The notes beneath the pieces are model-generated. The model had not been told where the DNA came from and did not search any database. It saw nothing but the letters and a program-made list of their open reading frames with translations. A stretch of 8,328 nt of DNA from a plasmid: assembly GCF_056712565.1 (NCBI RefSeq), contig NZ_JBWXXM010000005.1. The stretch is one strand, 5' to 3'. Both the position numbers and the translations under genes were made by a program. Positions 1 through 8,328 of the stretch are shown here, one piece after another (position 1 is the first letter of the stretch; each line of letters opens with the position of its first letter).

Positions 1-486
1 ACCAAGAGGCACACCAACAATAAAACTAAACATTAATGCCACAATTTTTGCCACACCTACATCGACCGCACTTTTCTCCAGCGTGATAAACAAAGGTCGC
101 CAGTTACCAGTTTCTATTGCATTTTTAAAATCAGAACCAACATCATATAGAAAAGATACTCGACTGGTGATTTTAAGCGACTTTGATATCTTCGTTAAAT
201 TCTTAGATAACTCATCATAATTAACAGACTCTAACGCATTAAAAATAGCATCCCGATCAACCTTACTGAATTTCTTATCCAGTACATTCTTATACTTTTC
301 AAATGCTGCCAGAGCTTCATCAACACCTTGAATTTTCTTTCCTTTAGACTTTTCCGCTAAATCCTGAGCAATTTTTGCGTATTTTTCTCCATATTGTTCG
401 GTTATATATTGATAAAATCCAACCATAGTATCAACAGCATCTTTTATCTGGCTCTTTTCAAGAGCATCCTGAGCTTCTTTTAATTT
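1..486 (-). CDS. cka: Pore-forming (channel) domain segment of the colicin gene, open to the window start but out of frame with the upstream part; partial at window edge
   Basis: Reverse-complement translation in the frame whose codons occupy (3,2,1),(6,5,4)... is stop-free from 498 down to 1: [166 protein letters not shown]. This matches the colicin E1/Ia/K/5/10 channel domain as I recall it (not searched). That frame has a stop at 499..501, so it cannot join the upstream ORF without a 1-nt correction. Confidence 0.85.
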
Positions 487-1556
487 CTGCTCTGCCTCTT
501 AACCTCAGCGGCCTTACCATCCCTGAAACTAACAGCATTCTTAAGTTCATTTTCAACTGCGGAGTACTCAGCCTGCTTAGCTTCAAGCTGACGCTGTAGT
601 TTTTTCTGAACGTCACGCCATCCCGGAAATCCGGTGACCTTCACGTCAACACTCTTCTGAGCGTTTTCAAGCTCTCCTGCAACTCTGGAAACAGTAGCTT
701 GCTTACTCTGTACATCACTTTCAGCCTTCGCCAGTTCAGCTTTCGCCTCAGCTAAACGCTTCTCTGCTTCCGCCACCGCCTGTTTCTCTTCATTAAGAGT
801 TTCATGTTCAGCGACCTCTGCATTTTCACGAGCCTTTTCTTCAGCTTCCTTCTGTTTATTCACATCACCAATTTTACTTTGCAATGTATTTTTATAAGAA
901 TTAAGTTTGCTAATATCTGCATCAAGCTGATTTGATTTTTTTTGCAACTCATCAACATCCCTCTCAAGATCAGTGATACCATGATAAGAATGATGCTTGA
1001 ATACTTTTTTCATCTCCTCGATTTTCTTCTGTTTTTCACTAATCTGTGTAGCAATTTTATTCTTCTGCTTTTGTTTTTCATTAATTACATTACCCACCAC
1101 CTTCGAACTCTTATCCATATCACTGACCTGAGCATTCGTTGGTGCAGTATTAACTGAAGCAGTGTTATTGTTGTTATTTCCTGAGCTTTCTGCAAAAAGT
1201 GATGGCATATCACTAATTAAAGAATTAAGAACTCTGGAGACCCCTCCAAATGGATTATCAACCAGAGTTGAATTATCTTCTGTCATAACAATACCATTCA
1301 TCACCGGAAGGCCATCATTATTAATGACAACATCACCCCACGGAGTCAGATATGACTCACCGGTTTTCATCACAGTTGATGTAGAACCAGATGAATTTGA
1401 ATTTCCCTGACCACCATTATTACCATGCCCAGAGCCACCACCCCAGTGAACCCCACTATTACTATTATTATTTCCACCTTGCTGATTCAGATTCGCCCCT
1501 GTTCCCCCCATAGACTCACCAGCAGTTGGTCCATATCCACTTAGTTCTTTAGCCAT
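480..1556 (-). CDS. cka: Colicin, N-terminal translocation and central coiled-coil/receptor-binding part (358 codons), ending at a premature stop caused by a frameshift
   Basis: ORF track 480..1556 (-). Gly/Asn/Ser-rich N-terminus followed by [36 protein letters not shown]...[13 protein letters not shown], which closely resembles my recollection of the colicin A Tol-dependent translocation domain ([38 protein letters not shown]...RVLNSLV). A long K/E/A-rich coiled-coil follows. SD-like AGAGGA lies 7 nt upstream of the ATG (minus strand, + coords 1563..1568). Assignment to colicin K specifically is circumstantial: total length would be about 548 codons if the frameshift were repaired, and the immunity protein is 96 aa. 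Confidence 0.92.
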
Positions 1557-5253: not shown

Positions 5254-5445
5254 GTGACTAAACAGGAAAAAACCGCCCTTAACATGGCCCGCTTCATCAG
5301 AAGCCAGACGCTGACCCTGCTGGAAAAACTGAATGAACTGGACGCCGACGACCAGGCTGACATCTGCGAAGCGCTTCACGACCACGCTGACGAGCTTTAC
5401 CGCAGCTGCCTCGCACGCTTCGGAGATGACGGTGAAAACCTCTGA
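5254..5445 (+). CDS. rop: Rop/Rom RNA one modulator protein (63 aa, GTG start)
   Basis: VTKQEKTALNMARFIRSQTLTLLEKLNELDADDQADICEALHDHADELYRSCLARFGDDGENL is near-identical to ColE1/pMB1 Rop as I recall it. GTG start at 5254 with GGAG about 10 nt upstream. The ORF-track entry 5014..5445 is an in-frame upstream extension with no support. Confidence 0.93.
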   Translation: MTKQEKTALNMARFIRSQTLTLLEKLNELDADDQADICEALHDHADELYRSCLARFGDDGENL

Positions 5446-5600: not shown

Positions 5601-6253
5601 TTGGCATCAGTGAGGATTGTATGAAAAGTGCACCATGCCGGGTGTGAAATGCCGCACAGATGCGTAAGGAGAAAATGCTCGTCCAGGCGCTTTTCCGCTT
5701 CCTCGCTCACTGACTCGCTCCGCTCGGTCGTTCGGCTGCGGCGAGCGGTATCAGCTCACTCAAAGACGGTAATGCGGTTATCCACAGAATCAGGGGATAA
5801 CACCAAAAGAAACATGTGAGCAAAAAACAAGAACCCGGAAAAGGCCACGCAGCTGGCGTTTTTCCATAGGCTCCGCCCCCCTGACGAGCATCACAAAAAC
5901 CGACGCTCAAGTCAGAGGTGGCGAAACCCGACAGGACTTAAAGATACCAGGCGTTTCCCCCTGGTGGCTCCCTCGTGCGCTCTCCTGTTCCGACCCTGCC
6001 GCTTACCGGATACCTGTCCGCCTTTCTCCCTTTGGGAAGCGTGGCGCTTTCTCATAGCTCACGCTGTTGGTATCTCAGTTCGGTGTAGGTCGTTCGCTCC
6101 AAGCTGGGCTGTGTGCACGAACCCCCCGTTCAGCCCGACCGCTGCGCCTTATCCGGTAACTATCGTCTTGAGTCCAACCCGGTAAGACACGACTTAACGC
6201 CACTGGCAGCAGCCATTGGTAACTGGATAGTGGATTTAGATACGCAGAACTCT

Positions 6254-6281
6254 TGAAGTTGAAGCCTTATAGCGGCTACAC
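6254..6281 (+). promoter_or_regulatory. RNAI promoter (-35 TTGAAG, -10 TACACT)
   Basis: TTGAAG at 6254..6259, a 16-nt spacer, TACACT at 6276..6281, then the RNAI start about 6289. Same architecture as pMB1. Confidence 0.65.
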
Positions 6282-6288
6282 TGGAAGG

Positions 6289-6392
6289 ACAGCATTTGGT
6301 ATCTGTGCTCCACTAAAGCCAGTTACCCGGTTAAGCAGTCCCCAACTGACTTAACCTTCGACTAAACCGCCTCCCCAGGCGGTTTTTTCGTT
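6289..6392 (+). ncRNA. RNAI antisense copy-number control RNA
   Basis: Starts at ACAGCATTTGGTATCTG (pMB1 RNAI starts ACAGTATTTGGTATCTG) and ends at the hairpin plus T-run ...ccgcctccccaggcggttttttcgtt. Its promoter has -35 TTGAAG (6254..6259) and -10 TACACT (6276..6281) as in pMB1. Loop sequences differ from pMB1. Confidence 0.8.
6364..6392 (+). terminator. RNAI intrinsic terminator
   Basis: Stem aaaccgcct / aggcggttt with loop cccc, followed by a T-run (ttttttcgtt). Confidence 0.7.
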
Positions 6393-6402
6393 TACAGGCA
6401 GC

Positions 6403-6432
6403 AGATTACGCGCAGAAAAAAAGGATCTCAAG
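6403..6432 (-). promoter_or_regulatory. RNAII promoter (-35 TTGAGA, -10 TAATCT on minus strand)
   Basis: Minus-strand sequence cttcTTGAGAtcctttttttctgcgcgTAATCTgctgcctGTAAAC has a 17-nt spacer and matches the pMB1 RNAII promoter as I recall it. Confidence 0.7.
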
Positions 6433-6454: not shown

Positions 6455-6459
6455 TGAAC
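6455..6459. repeat. IS2 target-site duplication (TGAAC), right-end copy
   Basis: TGAAC immediately outside the IS2 end at 6460; an identical TGAAC lies at 7791..7795 outside the other end. IS2 is known to make 5-bp duplications. Confidence 0.85.
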
Positions 6460-6500
6460 TGGATTTGCCCCTATATTTCCAGACACCTGTTATCACTTAA
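6460..6500. repeat. IS2 terminal inverted repeat (IRR)
   Basis: Imperfect inverted repeat partner of 7749..7790; shared core CCAGACA...ATATCACTTA. Confidence 0.8.
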
Positions 6501-7376
6501 CCCATTACTGGCTTGCTGCCGTAGATATTCCCGTGGCGAGCGATAACCCAGTGCACTATGCGGATGCCATTCGTTATAATGCTCGAACGCCTCTGCAAGG
6601 TTCTTTGCTGCCGTTAACCCGTCTGGTTTGGGCATGACACTGATGTAGTCACGCTTTATCGTTTTCACGAAGCTCTCTGCTATGCCGTTACTCTCCGGAC
6701 TCCGCACCGCCGTGCTCTTCGGTTCAAGCCCCAACATCCGGGCAAACTGCCGTGTTTCATTAGCCCGGTAGCATGAACCATTATCCGTCAGCCACTCTAC
6801 TGGAGACGCCGGAAGCTCGTTGCCGAAGCGGCGTTCCACCGCTCCCAGCATGACGTCCTGTACTGTTTCACTGTTGAAGCCGCCCGTAGTGACCGCCCAG
6901 TGCAGTGCCTCACGGTCACAGCAGTCCAGCGCGAACGTGACTCGCAGTTTTTCTCCGTTATCACAGCGGAACTCGAACCCGTCAGAGCACCATCGCTGAT
7001 TACTTTCTTTCACAGCCACTCTGCCTGTATGTGCCCGTTTCGATGGCGGTACAGCAGGTTTTCGCTCAAGCAACAGCGCATTCTGGCGCATGATCCGGTA
7101 AACACGTTTGGCATTGATCGCAGGCATACCATCAAGTTCTGCCTGTCTGCGAAGCAGCGCCCATACCCGACGATAACCATACGTGGGCAGCTCTCCGATA
7201 ACATGGTGTATACGGAGAAGCACATCCGTATCATCAGTGTGACGACTGCGGCGGCCATCCATCCAGTCATCGGTTCGTCTGAGAATGACGTGCAACTGCG
7301 CACGCGACACCCGGAGACAACGGCTGACTAAGCTTACTCCCCATCCCCGGGCAATAAGGGCGCGTGCGCTATCCAC
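6471..7376 (-). CDS. insD: IS2 transposase OrfB (InsD), normally expressed as an OrfAB fusion by -1 frameshifting
   Basis: ORF track 6471..7376 (-) 301 aa, (M/V)[33 protein letters not shown]...[12 protein letters not shown]... with a DDE-type integrase core (...[37 protein letters not shown]...). The first codon is GTG and overlaps the end of insC. Confidence 0.95.
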
Positions 7377-7699
7377 TTTTTTGCCCGTCCATATTCAACG
7401 GCTTCTTTGAGGAGTTCATTTTCCATCGTTTTCTTGCCGAGCAGGCGCTGGAGTTCTTTAATCTGCTTCATGGCGGCAGCAAGTTCAGAGGCAGGAACAA
7501 CCTGTTCTCCGGCGGCGACAGCAGTAAGACTTCCTTCCTGGTATTGCTTACGCCAGAGAAATAACTGGCTGGCTGCTACACCATGTTGCCGGGCAACGAG
7601 GGAGACCGTCATCCCTGGTTCAAAGCTCTGCTGAACAATTGCGATCTTTTCCTGTGTGGTACGCCGTCTGCGTTTCTCCGGTCCTAAGACATCAATCAT
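7334..7699 (-). CDS. insC: IS2 OrfA (InsC), helix-turn-helix regulator / N-terminal part of the transposase
   Basis: From ATG at 7699: [58 protein letters not shown]...[26 protein letters not shown]. The 15 extra N-terminal codons in the track ORF 7334..7744 are rejected. Confidence 0.93.
7377..7383 (-). other. IS2 programmed -1 ribosomal frameshift heptamer (A AAA AAG) at the insC/insD overlap
   Basis: Minus-strand sequence ggcA AAA AAG tgg is in the OrfA zero frame. A -1 slip reads AAA AAA GTG GAT AGC = KKVDS..., continuing into InsD. This is a known IS3-family mechanism. Confidence 0.7.
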
Positions 7700-7748
7700 C
7701 TGCTCTCCAATGACTAGTCTAAAAACTAGTATTAAGACTATCACTTAA

Positions 7749-7790
7749 ATAAGTGATATTGGTTGTCTGGAGATTCAGGGGGCCAGTCTA
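7749..7790. repeat. IS2 terminal inverted repeat (IRL)
   Basis: Reverse complement from 7790 reads TAGACTGGCCCCCTGAATCTCCAGACAACCAATATCACTTA... The lysis-gene reading frame terminates inside this repeat at TGA 7775..7777. Confidence 0.8.
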
Positions 7791-7918
7791 TGAACCGCGA
7801 TCCCCGTCAGTTCAGAAGACGAAGATGGTGCAACGGTTCCTCCTTGTACATCACGAATATAGTTTGCTTGACATCCTGACAAGAATAATATTGTAATTAG
7901 AAAAATTATTATTTTCAT
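7775..7918 (-). CDS. ckl: Colicin lysis (bacteriocin release) lipoprotein, with its 3' end altered by the IS2 insertion (47 codons; ends ...GIAV-HRLAP)
   Basis: Not in the ORF track (short). Reverse complement of 7793..7918 translates [42 protein letters not shown], with signal peptide, lipobox L-S-G-C and the [14 protein letters not shown] motif typical of colicin lysis proteins. Reading continues across the TSD into the IS2 IRL (H R L A P, stop TGA at 7775..7777). The displaced native end (Q codon and TAG) lies at 6451..6456 on the other side of IS2. Confidence 0.8.
7791..7795. repeat. IS2 target-site duplication (TGAAC), left-end copy
   Basis: TGAAC directly abutting the IS2 end at 7790; identical to 6455..6459. 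Confidence 0.85.
7868..7897 (+). promoter_or_regulatory. Candidate immunity-gene promoter located inside the lysis-gene coding region
   Basis: TTGACA at 7868..7873, an 18-nt spacer, TGTAAT at 7892..7897, about 50 bp upstream of the immunity ATG at 7948. Confidence 0.4.
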
Positions 7919-7947: not shown

Positions 7948-8238
7948 ATGCATTTAAAATACTACCTACATAATTTACCTGAATCACTTATACCATGGAT
8001 TCTTATTTTAATATTTAACGACAATGATAACACTCCTTTGTTATTTATATTTATATCATCAATACATGTATTGCTATATCCATACTCTAAATTAACCATA
8101 TCTAGATATATCAAAGAAAATACAAAGTTAAAAAAAGAACCCTGGTACTTATGCAAGTTATCTGCATTGTTTTATTTATTAATGGCAATCCCAGTAGGAT
8201 TGCCAAGTTTCATATATTACACTCTAAAGAGAAATTAA
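7948..8238 (+). CDS. cki: Pore-forming colicin immunity protein (96 aa, integral inner-membrane protein)
   Basis: ORF track 7948..8238 (+). Very AT-rich and hydrophobic (…[33 protein letters not shown]…[26 protein letters not shown]), consistent with several membrane spans. It is convergent with the colicin gene and sits between colicin and lysis genes on the opposite strand, the canonical arrangement for pore-former immunity genes. Its stop (8236..8238) overlaps the colicin stop (8235..8237). Confidence 0.8.
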
Positions 8239-8328
8239 ATCCCTAACAACTCATTAAGTTTGCTCAACTCATCATCCCCTATGTAAGAAGAAACAATACC
8301 TGTGACAATTGCAATCCCCCAGAAACCA
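8235..8328 (-). CDS. cka: C-terminal tail of the colicin gene (last 29 codons plus stop), continuing from the window start across the circular junction
   Basis: Reverse complement of 8235..8327 translates [30 protein letters not shown]-stop, the end of the hydrophobic hairpin and C-terminus of a pore-forming colicin. The stop TAA is the reverse complement of 8235..8237. Window 8325..8328 (acca) equals window 1..4 (acca), and joining 8324 to 1 gives a continuous ...[15 protein letters not shown]... reading frame. Confidence 0.75.

Follow-up and report, generated by a model that had tools for sequence, protein, structure and literature searches.

A native ColK-type RNAI with a loop set probably compatible with pMB1/ColE1 and a probable origin by module exchange

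The stretch of DNA analyzed here (8,328 nucleotides from plasmid contig NZ_JBWXXM010000005.1, hereafter the window) is a complete ColK-type colicin plasmid with an IS2 insertion, as found by megablast against 72,556 plasmid records. Positions 6289-6392 encode the RNAI of this natural ColK-type replicon of the ColE1 family; its loop set very probably makes it compatible with pMB1/ColE1, and its divergence is best explained by exchange of a module. About 25 natural plasmids of 6988 bp from E. coli, Salmonella, and Shigella matched 84% of the window at 99.8-100% identity (megablast). Their annotations list cka, cki, a gene for colicin lysis, mbe/mobC genes, exc2, and rop. The remaining 16% of the window is a copy of IS2 at 6460-7790. 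The plasmid pColK-K235 (NC_006881) aligned to the entire window at 99.4% identity, in five rearranged pieces. Both elements that define a ColK plasmid, a pColK-K235-type replicon and the colicin K operon (cka, cki, ckl), were found in the window, and the gene set cka-cki-ckl, mbe, exc2, and rop is common to the window, pColK-K235, and the 6988-bp ColK plasmids.

In pColK-K235 and the 6988-bp ColK plasmids (e.g., CP054461 pSCU-103-4 and NZ_CP120553 pB1172_6988) the RNAI agrees with that of the window at 104 of 104 positions, and the origin is 99.5-100% identical. The window differs from known ColK plasmids in its IS2 site and in a frameshift within cka, neither of which touches RNAI. At least 45 plasmids from complete E. 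coli genomes, in records of 5119 to 23411 bp, contained the exact 196-nt block that has diverged from pMB1/ColE1 (100% identity). Its carriers include E. coli from humans, pigs, cattle, birds, and dogs, as well as Salmonella and Shigella plasmids. Judged by these matches, the RNAI of the window is the one native to the ColK replicon, a catalogued and already known variant that is nothing new in kind. In one record of 17,997 bp (NZ_CP082064) the ColK origin unit is present three times in tandem, once with a deleted cka. This record was considered as a cointegrate of different RNAI types and rejected, as it looks like a ColK multimer or a long-read assembly of multimers.

RNAI is an antisense copy-control RNA of about 104 nt, and its gene lies on the plus strand at 6289-6392. 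A 9-nt 5' tail (6289-6297) is followed by three stem-loops; the position of the 5' end, A6289, was set by homology. The Rfam RNAI family (RF00106) matched 6291-6391 of the plus strand across the full model (1-102) with 77.4 bits against a gathering score of 47 (E = 2.3e-13), the sole Rfam match within the window. The minimum free energy fold of 6289-6392 consists of the 9-nt tail and three hairpins at -39.6 kcal/mol, compared with -18.5 ± 2.9 kcal/mol for shuffled sequences (z -7.4). In the consensus RNAI structure of 10 replicons, 9 of the 28 pairs stay paired through changes on both sides. Stem-loop 1 (SL1, 6298-6327) presents the loop CCACUAA (6310-6316) in this fold, SL2 (6329-6356) the loop (U)CCCCA(A), with CCCCA at 6340-6344, and SL3 (6359-6390) the loop (U)CCCC(A) at 6373-6376. 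SL3 is probably also the intrinsic terminator of RNAI, with a T-run at 6383-6388; a signal scan of the window detected a terminator-like site, a hairpin with a T-run, at 6364-6385 on the plus strand. Folding RNAI and aligning its loops with known types, as the preliminary description had proposed, gave three stem-loops, and all three loops were unlike those of pMB1/ColE1.

The putative sigma-70 promoter of RNAI (6253-6282, plus strand) consists of a -35 hexamer TTGAAG (6253-6258), an 18-nt spacer, and a -10 hexamer TACACT (6277-6282) ahead of the start at A6289. We take these hexamers to be the promoter from established knowledge of ColE1. They are conserved across 12 aligned replicons, and the spacer has diverged. 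The RNAII promoter (6403-6431, minus strand) has a -35 hexamer TTGAGA (complement of 6426-6431), a 17-nt spacer, and a -10 hexamer TAATCT (complement of 6403-6408). It is invariant in the alignment of the window, pMB1-type, and ColE1 origins, where the segment 6394-6433 is 95% identical. A consensus promoter scan of the window picked up neither the RNAI nor the RNAII promoter (each 8/12, below threshold), and both calls therefore rest on homology.

The RNAII primer precursor occupies 5850-6395 on the minus strand. Homology puts its +1 near 6395 and its RNA-to-DNA switch (ori) near 5850, each only approximately. The strand antisense to RNAI aligns to pMB1-type and ColE1 RNAII, the body (5853-6209) being 97-98% identical down to ori. 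Within the RNAII body of ColK, ColE1, and relatives, RefSeq/PGAP annotates an ORF of 47-52 aa as a "replication initiation protein" (about 6060-6210 in the window, 80-223 in L005, and 784-942 in L002). ColE1-type replication needs no plasmid-encoded initiator, which makes the name doubtful, and the label is probably a spurious annotation. The rop (rom) gene is present at 5254-5445 on the plus strand; its 63-aa translation is that of the CDS "Rop family plasmid primer RNA-binding protein" in CP054461. The product of rop is an accessory protein that stabilizes the RNAI-RNAII kissing complex.

It has been shown for the ColE1 family that RNAI loops kiss the loops of nascent RNAII, that Rop stabilizes the complex, and that primer formation is blocked (PMC8683028; PMC9458437). 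By analogy, the RNAI of the window would be transcribed from its own promoter in the direction opposite to the 5' end of the RNAII primer precursor, and its three hairpins would engage nascent RNAII by kissing between complementary loops. A full duplex would then be nucleated by the 9-nt 5' tail, with Rop stabilizing the complex, and the RNase H-cleavable hybrid at ori would be prevented in RNAII, so that no primer is made. RNAI is expected to work in trans on any loop-matched RNAII, and therefore plasmids with matching RNAI/RNAII would be co-regulated and incompatible; the loop set would thus define the incompatibility specificity. The ColK loop set (CCACUAA/UCCCCA/UCCCCA) is predicted to give control independent of pMB1/ColE1 and hence compatibility.

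The pMB1 reference used for comparison was a cloning-vector origin (pCAPs, NC_025010), which stands in for natural pMB1; it agrees at 589 of 589 positions with what we take to be the pBR322-type (pMB1-type) origin. Authentic ColE1 (NC_001371) served as a second reference and gave the same numbers, the two RNAIs being 99.1% identical. The mechanism of replication, the architecture, the SL1 stem, the RNAI promoter hexamers, and rop are shared by the window and pMB1/ColE1; all three loops, the SL2 and SL3 hairpins, and a 15-nt deletion in RNAII nt ~108-197 of the window set them apart. Most of the RNAII body had been described as matching pMB1, and 5853-6209 is indeed 98% identical to the pMB1-type vector origin. 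The RNAI gene is only 66% identical (65-66% across pMB1-type and ColE1 origins). The loop-region strings quoted in the preliminary description, GGUAUCUGUGCUCCACUAAAGCC for the window and GGUAUCUGCGCUCUGCUGAAGCC for the pMB1-type origin, are exact. Its statement that all three stem-loops differ substantially holds for SL2 and SL3, in stems as well as loops, and has to be amended for SL1, which keeps its stem and has a changed loop. SL1 is 85% identical to that of pMB1, the differences being three of the seven loop positions and one unpaired stem position. The three changes from the pMB1 loop CUGCUGA to CCACUAA are all transitions. SL2 of the window is unrelated to the UUGGUAG hairpin of pMB1.

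The promoters and the terminator had been listed with the conserved parts. For the promoters this is correct as far as the hexamers and the RNAII promoter (95%) are concerned, but not for the diverged spacer of the RNAI promoter. The presumed terminator is SL3 itself, which has diverged (56-59% identity in the multiple alignment); only its T-run agrees with pMB1. Nor is the divergence confined to RNAI, as had been assumed: it extends for about 90 nt beyond it, to 6199. This second part of the diverged block (6199-6288) covers RNAII nt ~108-197 and the spacer of the RNAI promoter, and includes the 15-nt deletion relative to pMB1/ColE1. Its identity to pMB1/ColE1 is 60-72%; the segment 6210-6288 is 60% identical to the pMB1-type origin and contains the deletion. 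After pairwise realignment, SL2 and SL3 are 57% identical to pMB1, against 91% for the rest of the origin (Fisher p = 6.6e-12).

Sliding-window and segment comparisons were used to look for mosaic structure among 12 replicons. The comparison set consisted of CloDF13, a p15A-type plasmid, pPCP1, and seven other natural ColE1-like origins with 75-92% RNAI identity. The RNAI of all these origins scored above the Rfam threshold. CloDF13, ColEST258, Pantoea pDSJ02, and one plasmid each from E. coli, Klebsiella, and Shigella make up a CloDF13-type group. The MAFFT alignment gave 70% identity between SL2 of the window and of CloDF13, a value understated by a 1-nt shift, and pairwise realignment was used instead. 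From ori through SL1 the window is 92-97% identical, by segment, to pPCP1 of Yersinia pestis (NZ_HM807367). In the RNAII body pPCP1 is 97% identical to the window, pMB1/ColE1 97-98%, and the CloDF13-type group 78-90%. In 6199-6288 the values are 96% for pPCP1, 71-72% for pMB1/ColE1, and 74-84% for the CloDF13-type group; for the 5' tail and SL1 they are 92%, 85%, and 65-88%, respectively. The order is reversed in SL2 and SL3 (6329-6392), where the CloDF13-type group is 91-95% identical to the window, pPCP1 62%, and pMB1/ColE1 57%. The contrast between 5853-6328 (96%) and SL2-SL3 (62%) in pPCP1 has p = 3.7e-15. In the CloDF13-type group the rest of the origin (5853-6328) is 78-87% identical, and the opposite contrast, SL2-SL3 higher than the rest, gave p = 0.001-0.044.

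Individual features follow the same division. pPCP1 shares with the window the region in which ColE1/pMB1 diverge, including the state of the 15-nt deletion, and its loop 1, CCACUUA, is one nucleotide off the window's CCACUAA, the nearest match to SL1. Its SL2 and SL3 belong to a third, unrelated type with loops containing CCUGAGAA. In CloDF13 (NC_002119), ColEST258, and related plasmids with UCCCCA loops, loop 3 is that of the window; SL2 and SL3 are 91% identical in CloDF13 and ColEST258. The CloDF13-type SL2 has the stem and loop of the window except for the deletion of one U from the window loop, and the CloDF13-type SL3 differs from that of the window by one compensatory G-C/A-U pair. Loop 1 of CloDF13 is CUGCGAA vs. 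CCACUAA in the window, its SL4 region is 74% identical, and the CloDF13-type RNAII body is 78% identical to that of the window, with a maximum of 90% for the elppa5 type of E. coli. The origin is best explained as a mosaic, with ori through SL1 from the pPCP1/ColE1 lineage and SL2-SL3 from the CloDF13 lineage; we infer the recombination from the comparison of the 12 replicons.

The loop set would place the ColK replicon outside the pMB1/ColE1 specificity and, because of loop 1, not fully within that of CloDF13. The loops of pMB1 are CUGCUGA, UUGGUAG, and CUGGUAG, those of CloDF13 CUGCGAA, UUCCCCA, and UCCCCA, and those of the p15A type CCUCCA, UUGGUAG, and CUGCAA, compared with CCACUAA, UCCCCA(A), and UCCCCA in ColK. 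Relative to pMB1/ColE1, none of the ColK loops is identical or nearly identical, and loops 2 and 3 are unrelated. Relative to CloDF13, loop 3 is identical, loop 2 lacks one U, and loop 1 differs at three of seven positions. A crude loop-duplex calculation of RNAI on RNAII gave -7.4, -10.3, and -9.3 kcal/mol for the cognate ColK loops 1, 2, and 3. ColK RNAI on CloDF13 RNAII gave +1.2, -11.1, and -9.3 kcal/mol, and ColK RNAI on pMB1 RNAII +0.6, +3.3, and +2.3 kcal/mol, i.e., no stable heterologous pairing with pMB1 at any of the three loops by this crude measure. In the reverse combination, pMB1 RNAI on ColK RNAII, the values were -4.1 (with three G-U wobbles), +2.3, and -0.1 kcal/mol.

ColK could on this basis have no specificity of its own and belong functionally to the CloDF13 (pCDF) group, cross-reacting with small plasmids that carry UCCCCA loops. 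The 91-95% identity of SL2-SL3 to CloDF13-type RNAIs is in line with this, as is heterologous pairing about as strong as the cognate one (-11.1 vs. -10.3 kcal/mol at loop 2 and -9.3 vs. -9.3 kcal/mol at loop 3). Loop 1, however, differs at three of its seven positions (CCACUAA vs. CUGCGAA) and forms no stable pairing (+1.2 and -1.6 kcal/mol), loop 2 of ColK is one nucleotide shorter, and the 5' tail differs in length. Discrimination at loop 1 is also suggested by the seven UCCCCA-loop replicons, which have six different loop 1 sequences. Moreover, p15A and pMB1 have loop 2 in common and are nevertheless compatible (PMC9458437). We regard functional identity with the CloDF13 group as rather unlikely, though it is the strongest competitor of a separate ColK specificity. 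No strain name was common to ColK and the CloDF13-like type among the 60 matches listed, which is uninformative. From its sequence, the ColK specificity is not a new one but the one that belongs to a known replicon, ColK, and CloDF13-type replicons share two of the three loops.

The divergence might instead have arisen in place, by accelerated point mutation selected for escape from incompatibility, with no RNAI module passing between replicons. It is plausible that RNAI loops are under diversifying selection, loop 1 departs from that of pMB1 by three single transitions, and directed evolution of the loops alone has yielded compatible origins (PMC9458437). Against such a course stand stems that are altered as blocks, along with indels. 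The bodies of ColK, ColE1, pMB1, and pPCP1 differ by 2-3%, but their SL2-SL3 regions are only 57-62% identical; conversely, SL2-SL3 of ColK reaches 91-95% identity with replicons that match it at only 78-90% in their bodies. ColK, ColE1, pMB1, and pPCP1, with bodies 97-98% identical, have three unrelated versions of SL2-SL3, and that of ColK turns up again on distant backbones. Exchange of a module of about 65 nt is therefore more parsimonious than mutation in place, which we consider unlikely.

A different incompatibility specificity from pMB1/ColE1 had been predicted in the preliminary description, and the prediction is supported, as an inference, by the loops, by natural co-residence, and by the analogy with CloDF13. 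Independent control of the ColK replicon from pMB1/ColE1 is expected, because heterologous loop pairing with pMB1 is unfavorable in the model calculation. With CloDF13-type replicons, cross-talk at two of the three loops is possible. It has been pointed out that loop differences alone are insufficient to predict compatibility (Chaillou et al., PMC9458437). CloDF13, p15A, and ColE1/pMB1 are known as mutually compatible ColE1-type origins (PMC9458437; PMC12307069). Our search of the literature turned up no usable published test of incompatibility between ColK and ColE1 or between ColK and CloDF13. Work from the Sherratt laboratory reportedly treated ColK and ColE1 as compatible.

Co-residence in nature was observed in E. 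coli B1172 (GCF_029536615.1). This strain carries pB1172_6988, a 6988-bp ColK plasmid with the RNAI of the window, together with pB1172_11599, a colicin E1 plasmid with an RNAI region 100% identical to that of ColE1. It is a single case of ColK and ColE1-type RNAI in one strain. Chance alone would give about 1.2 co-occurrences, given 51 ColK-type and 132 ColE1-type records among 5426 genomes. No exclusion of ColK and ColE1-type plasmids was seen in a comparison limited to the best 60 of the 132 ColE1-type records, with little power either way. In E. coli VR50 a ColK-type plasmid is accompanied by pVR50D, which is likewise ColE1-like and carries rop and mbeA; in the RNAI of pVR50D the SL2 stem is as in ColK and all three loops are different. 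Two further candidates were rejected. The plasmid pB1172_5164 was considered as an additional RNAI plasmid of B1172 and turned out to be a Rep-protein plasmid that lacks RNAI. NZ_CP117306 (3727 bp) and NZ_CP117308 (ColK) were considered as co-residents of the same type; they have the same origin and come from different strains.

It is very unlikely that the replicon still belongs to the pMB1/ColE1 incompatibility group, with cross-inhibition through the SL1 stem that they share, the 5' tail, and the RNAII downstream, which is identical. The tail and SL1 are 85% identical to pMB1, loop 1 of pMB1 RNAI can wobble-pair with loop 1 of ColK RNAII (-4.1 kcal/mol), and MOB-suite assigns ColK, ColE1, the pMB1 vector, and pPCP1 to one cluster (rep_cluster_2350). 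Loops 2 and 3 are nevertheless devoid of complementarity to those of pMB1, ColK and ColE1-RNAI plasmids reside together in B1172, and CloDF13, which has SL2/SL3 in common with ColK and whose loop 1 is more like that of pMB1, is compatible with pMB1 (PMC9458437; PMC12307069). Weak one-way cross-inhibition by pMB1 RNAI on ColK RNAII is possible in the model because of the wobble pairing at loop 1, a 5' tail that differs by one nucleotide, and the shared SL1 stem. Nothing beyond two single-base indels elsewhere in the window speaks for an engineered origin or for an artefact of sequencing or assembly, and both are effectively excluded by the identity of the 196-nt block in at least 45 independently assembled E. 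coli plasmids.

Loops 2 and 3 carry the same sequence of 6-9 nt in 11 of the 12 replicons examined. The shared sequence is UCCCCA in seven replicons (window and CloDF13 included), UUGGUAG in ColE1, UGGUAG in pMB1, GCCUGAGAA in pPCP1, and CUGCAAG in pVR50D. The p15A type, with UUGGUAG in loop 2 and CUGCAA in loop 3, is the only hybrid. Loop 1 differs between almost all RNAI types examined. No discussion of the sameness of loops 2 and 3 was found in the literature searched; cross-kissing with a higher on-rate, gene conversion between the hairpins, or duplication are possible causes, and the rule that loop 2 equals loop 3 would, if true, point to a constraint. Tentatively, the specificities of the ColE1 family may be combinatorial, built from one module that spans ori through SL1 with a freely varying loop 1 and a second module that consists of SL2 and SL3. 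ColK would then combine a body and SL1 of the pPCP1 type with SL2/SL3 of the CloDF13 type; it would be compatible with pMB1 and might cross-react with pCDF-type plasmids.

The significance of these observations is small and practical. The mosaic would be a tidy example of how new RNAI specificities arise by module exchange. The ColK origin could serve as an additional small ColE1-type vector origin compatible with pMB1 vectors, two of its loops being CloDF13-like. The MOB-suite cluster rep_cluster_2350, based on overall origin similarity, joins ColK, ColE1, pMB1 vectors, and pPCP1 despite their different loop sets; because the loop sets differ and a ColK plasmid coexists in B1172 with one whose RNAI region is that of ColE1, such typing does not report incompatibility within the ColE1 family.

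Several features of the window lie outside the origin. IS2 (1331 bp, 6460-7790) is flanked by a 5-bp TGAAC duplication (6455-6459 and 7791-7795), and its transposase ORFs are on the minus strand. The element separates ckl from the RNAII promoter and lies 27 bp upstream of the -35 hexamer of RNAII, so that any transcript leaving IS2 heads towards RNAII. The window arrangement was found in no PLSDB plasmid, and no record from 5426 complete E. coli genomes covered the left (ori-side) IS2 junction to 80%. The IS2 of pColK-K235 is at a different site and the two copies are only 97.6% identical, which points to an insertion in the window independent of that in pColK-K235. In the colicin K lysis gene (7775-7918, minus strand) IS2 enters with two codons left to the stop. 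This replaces the C-terminal end of the protein (...TGIAVQ*), and the new stop lies within the IS2 end. The cka gene (8235-8328 and 1-1556, minus strand) runs across the circular junction and has a 1-nt deletion at 499 (TT vs. TTT in CP054461). The resulting frameshift leads to a stop after 358 aa instead of 548, with loss of the C-terminal pore-forming part; the gene is either a genuine pseudogene or affected by a sequencing error in the homopolymer. A second single-base difference from CP054461, an extra A at 2922, was found just after exc2.
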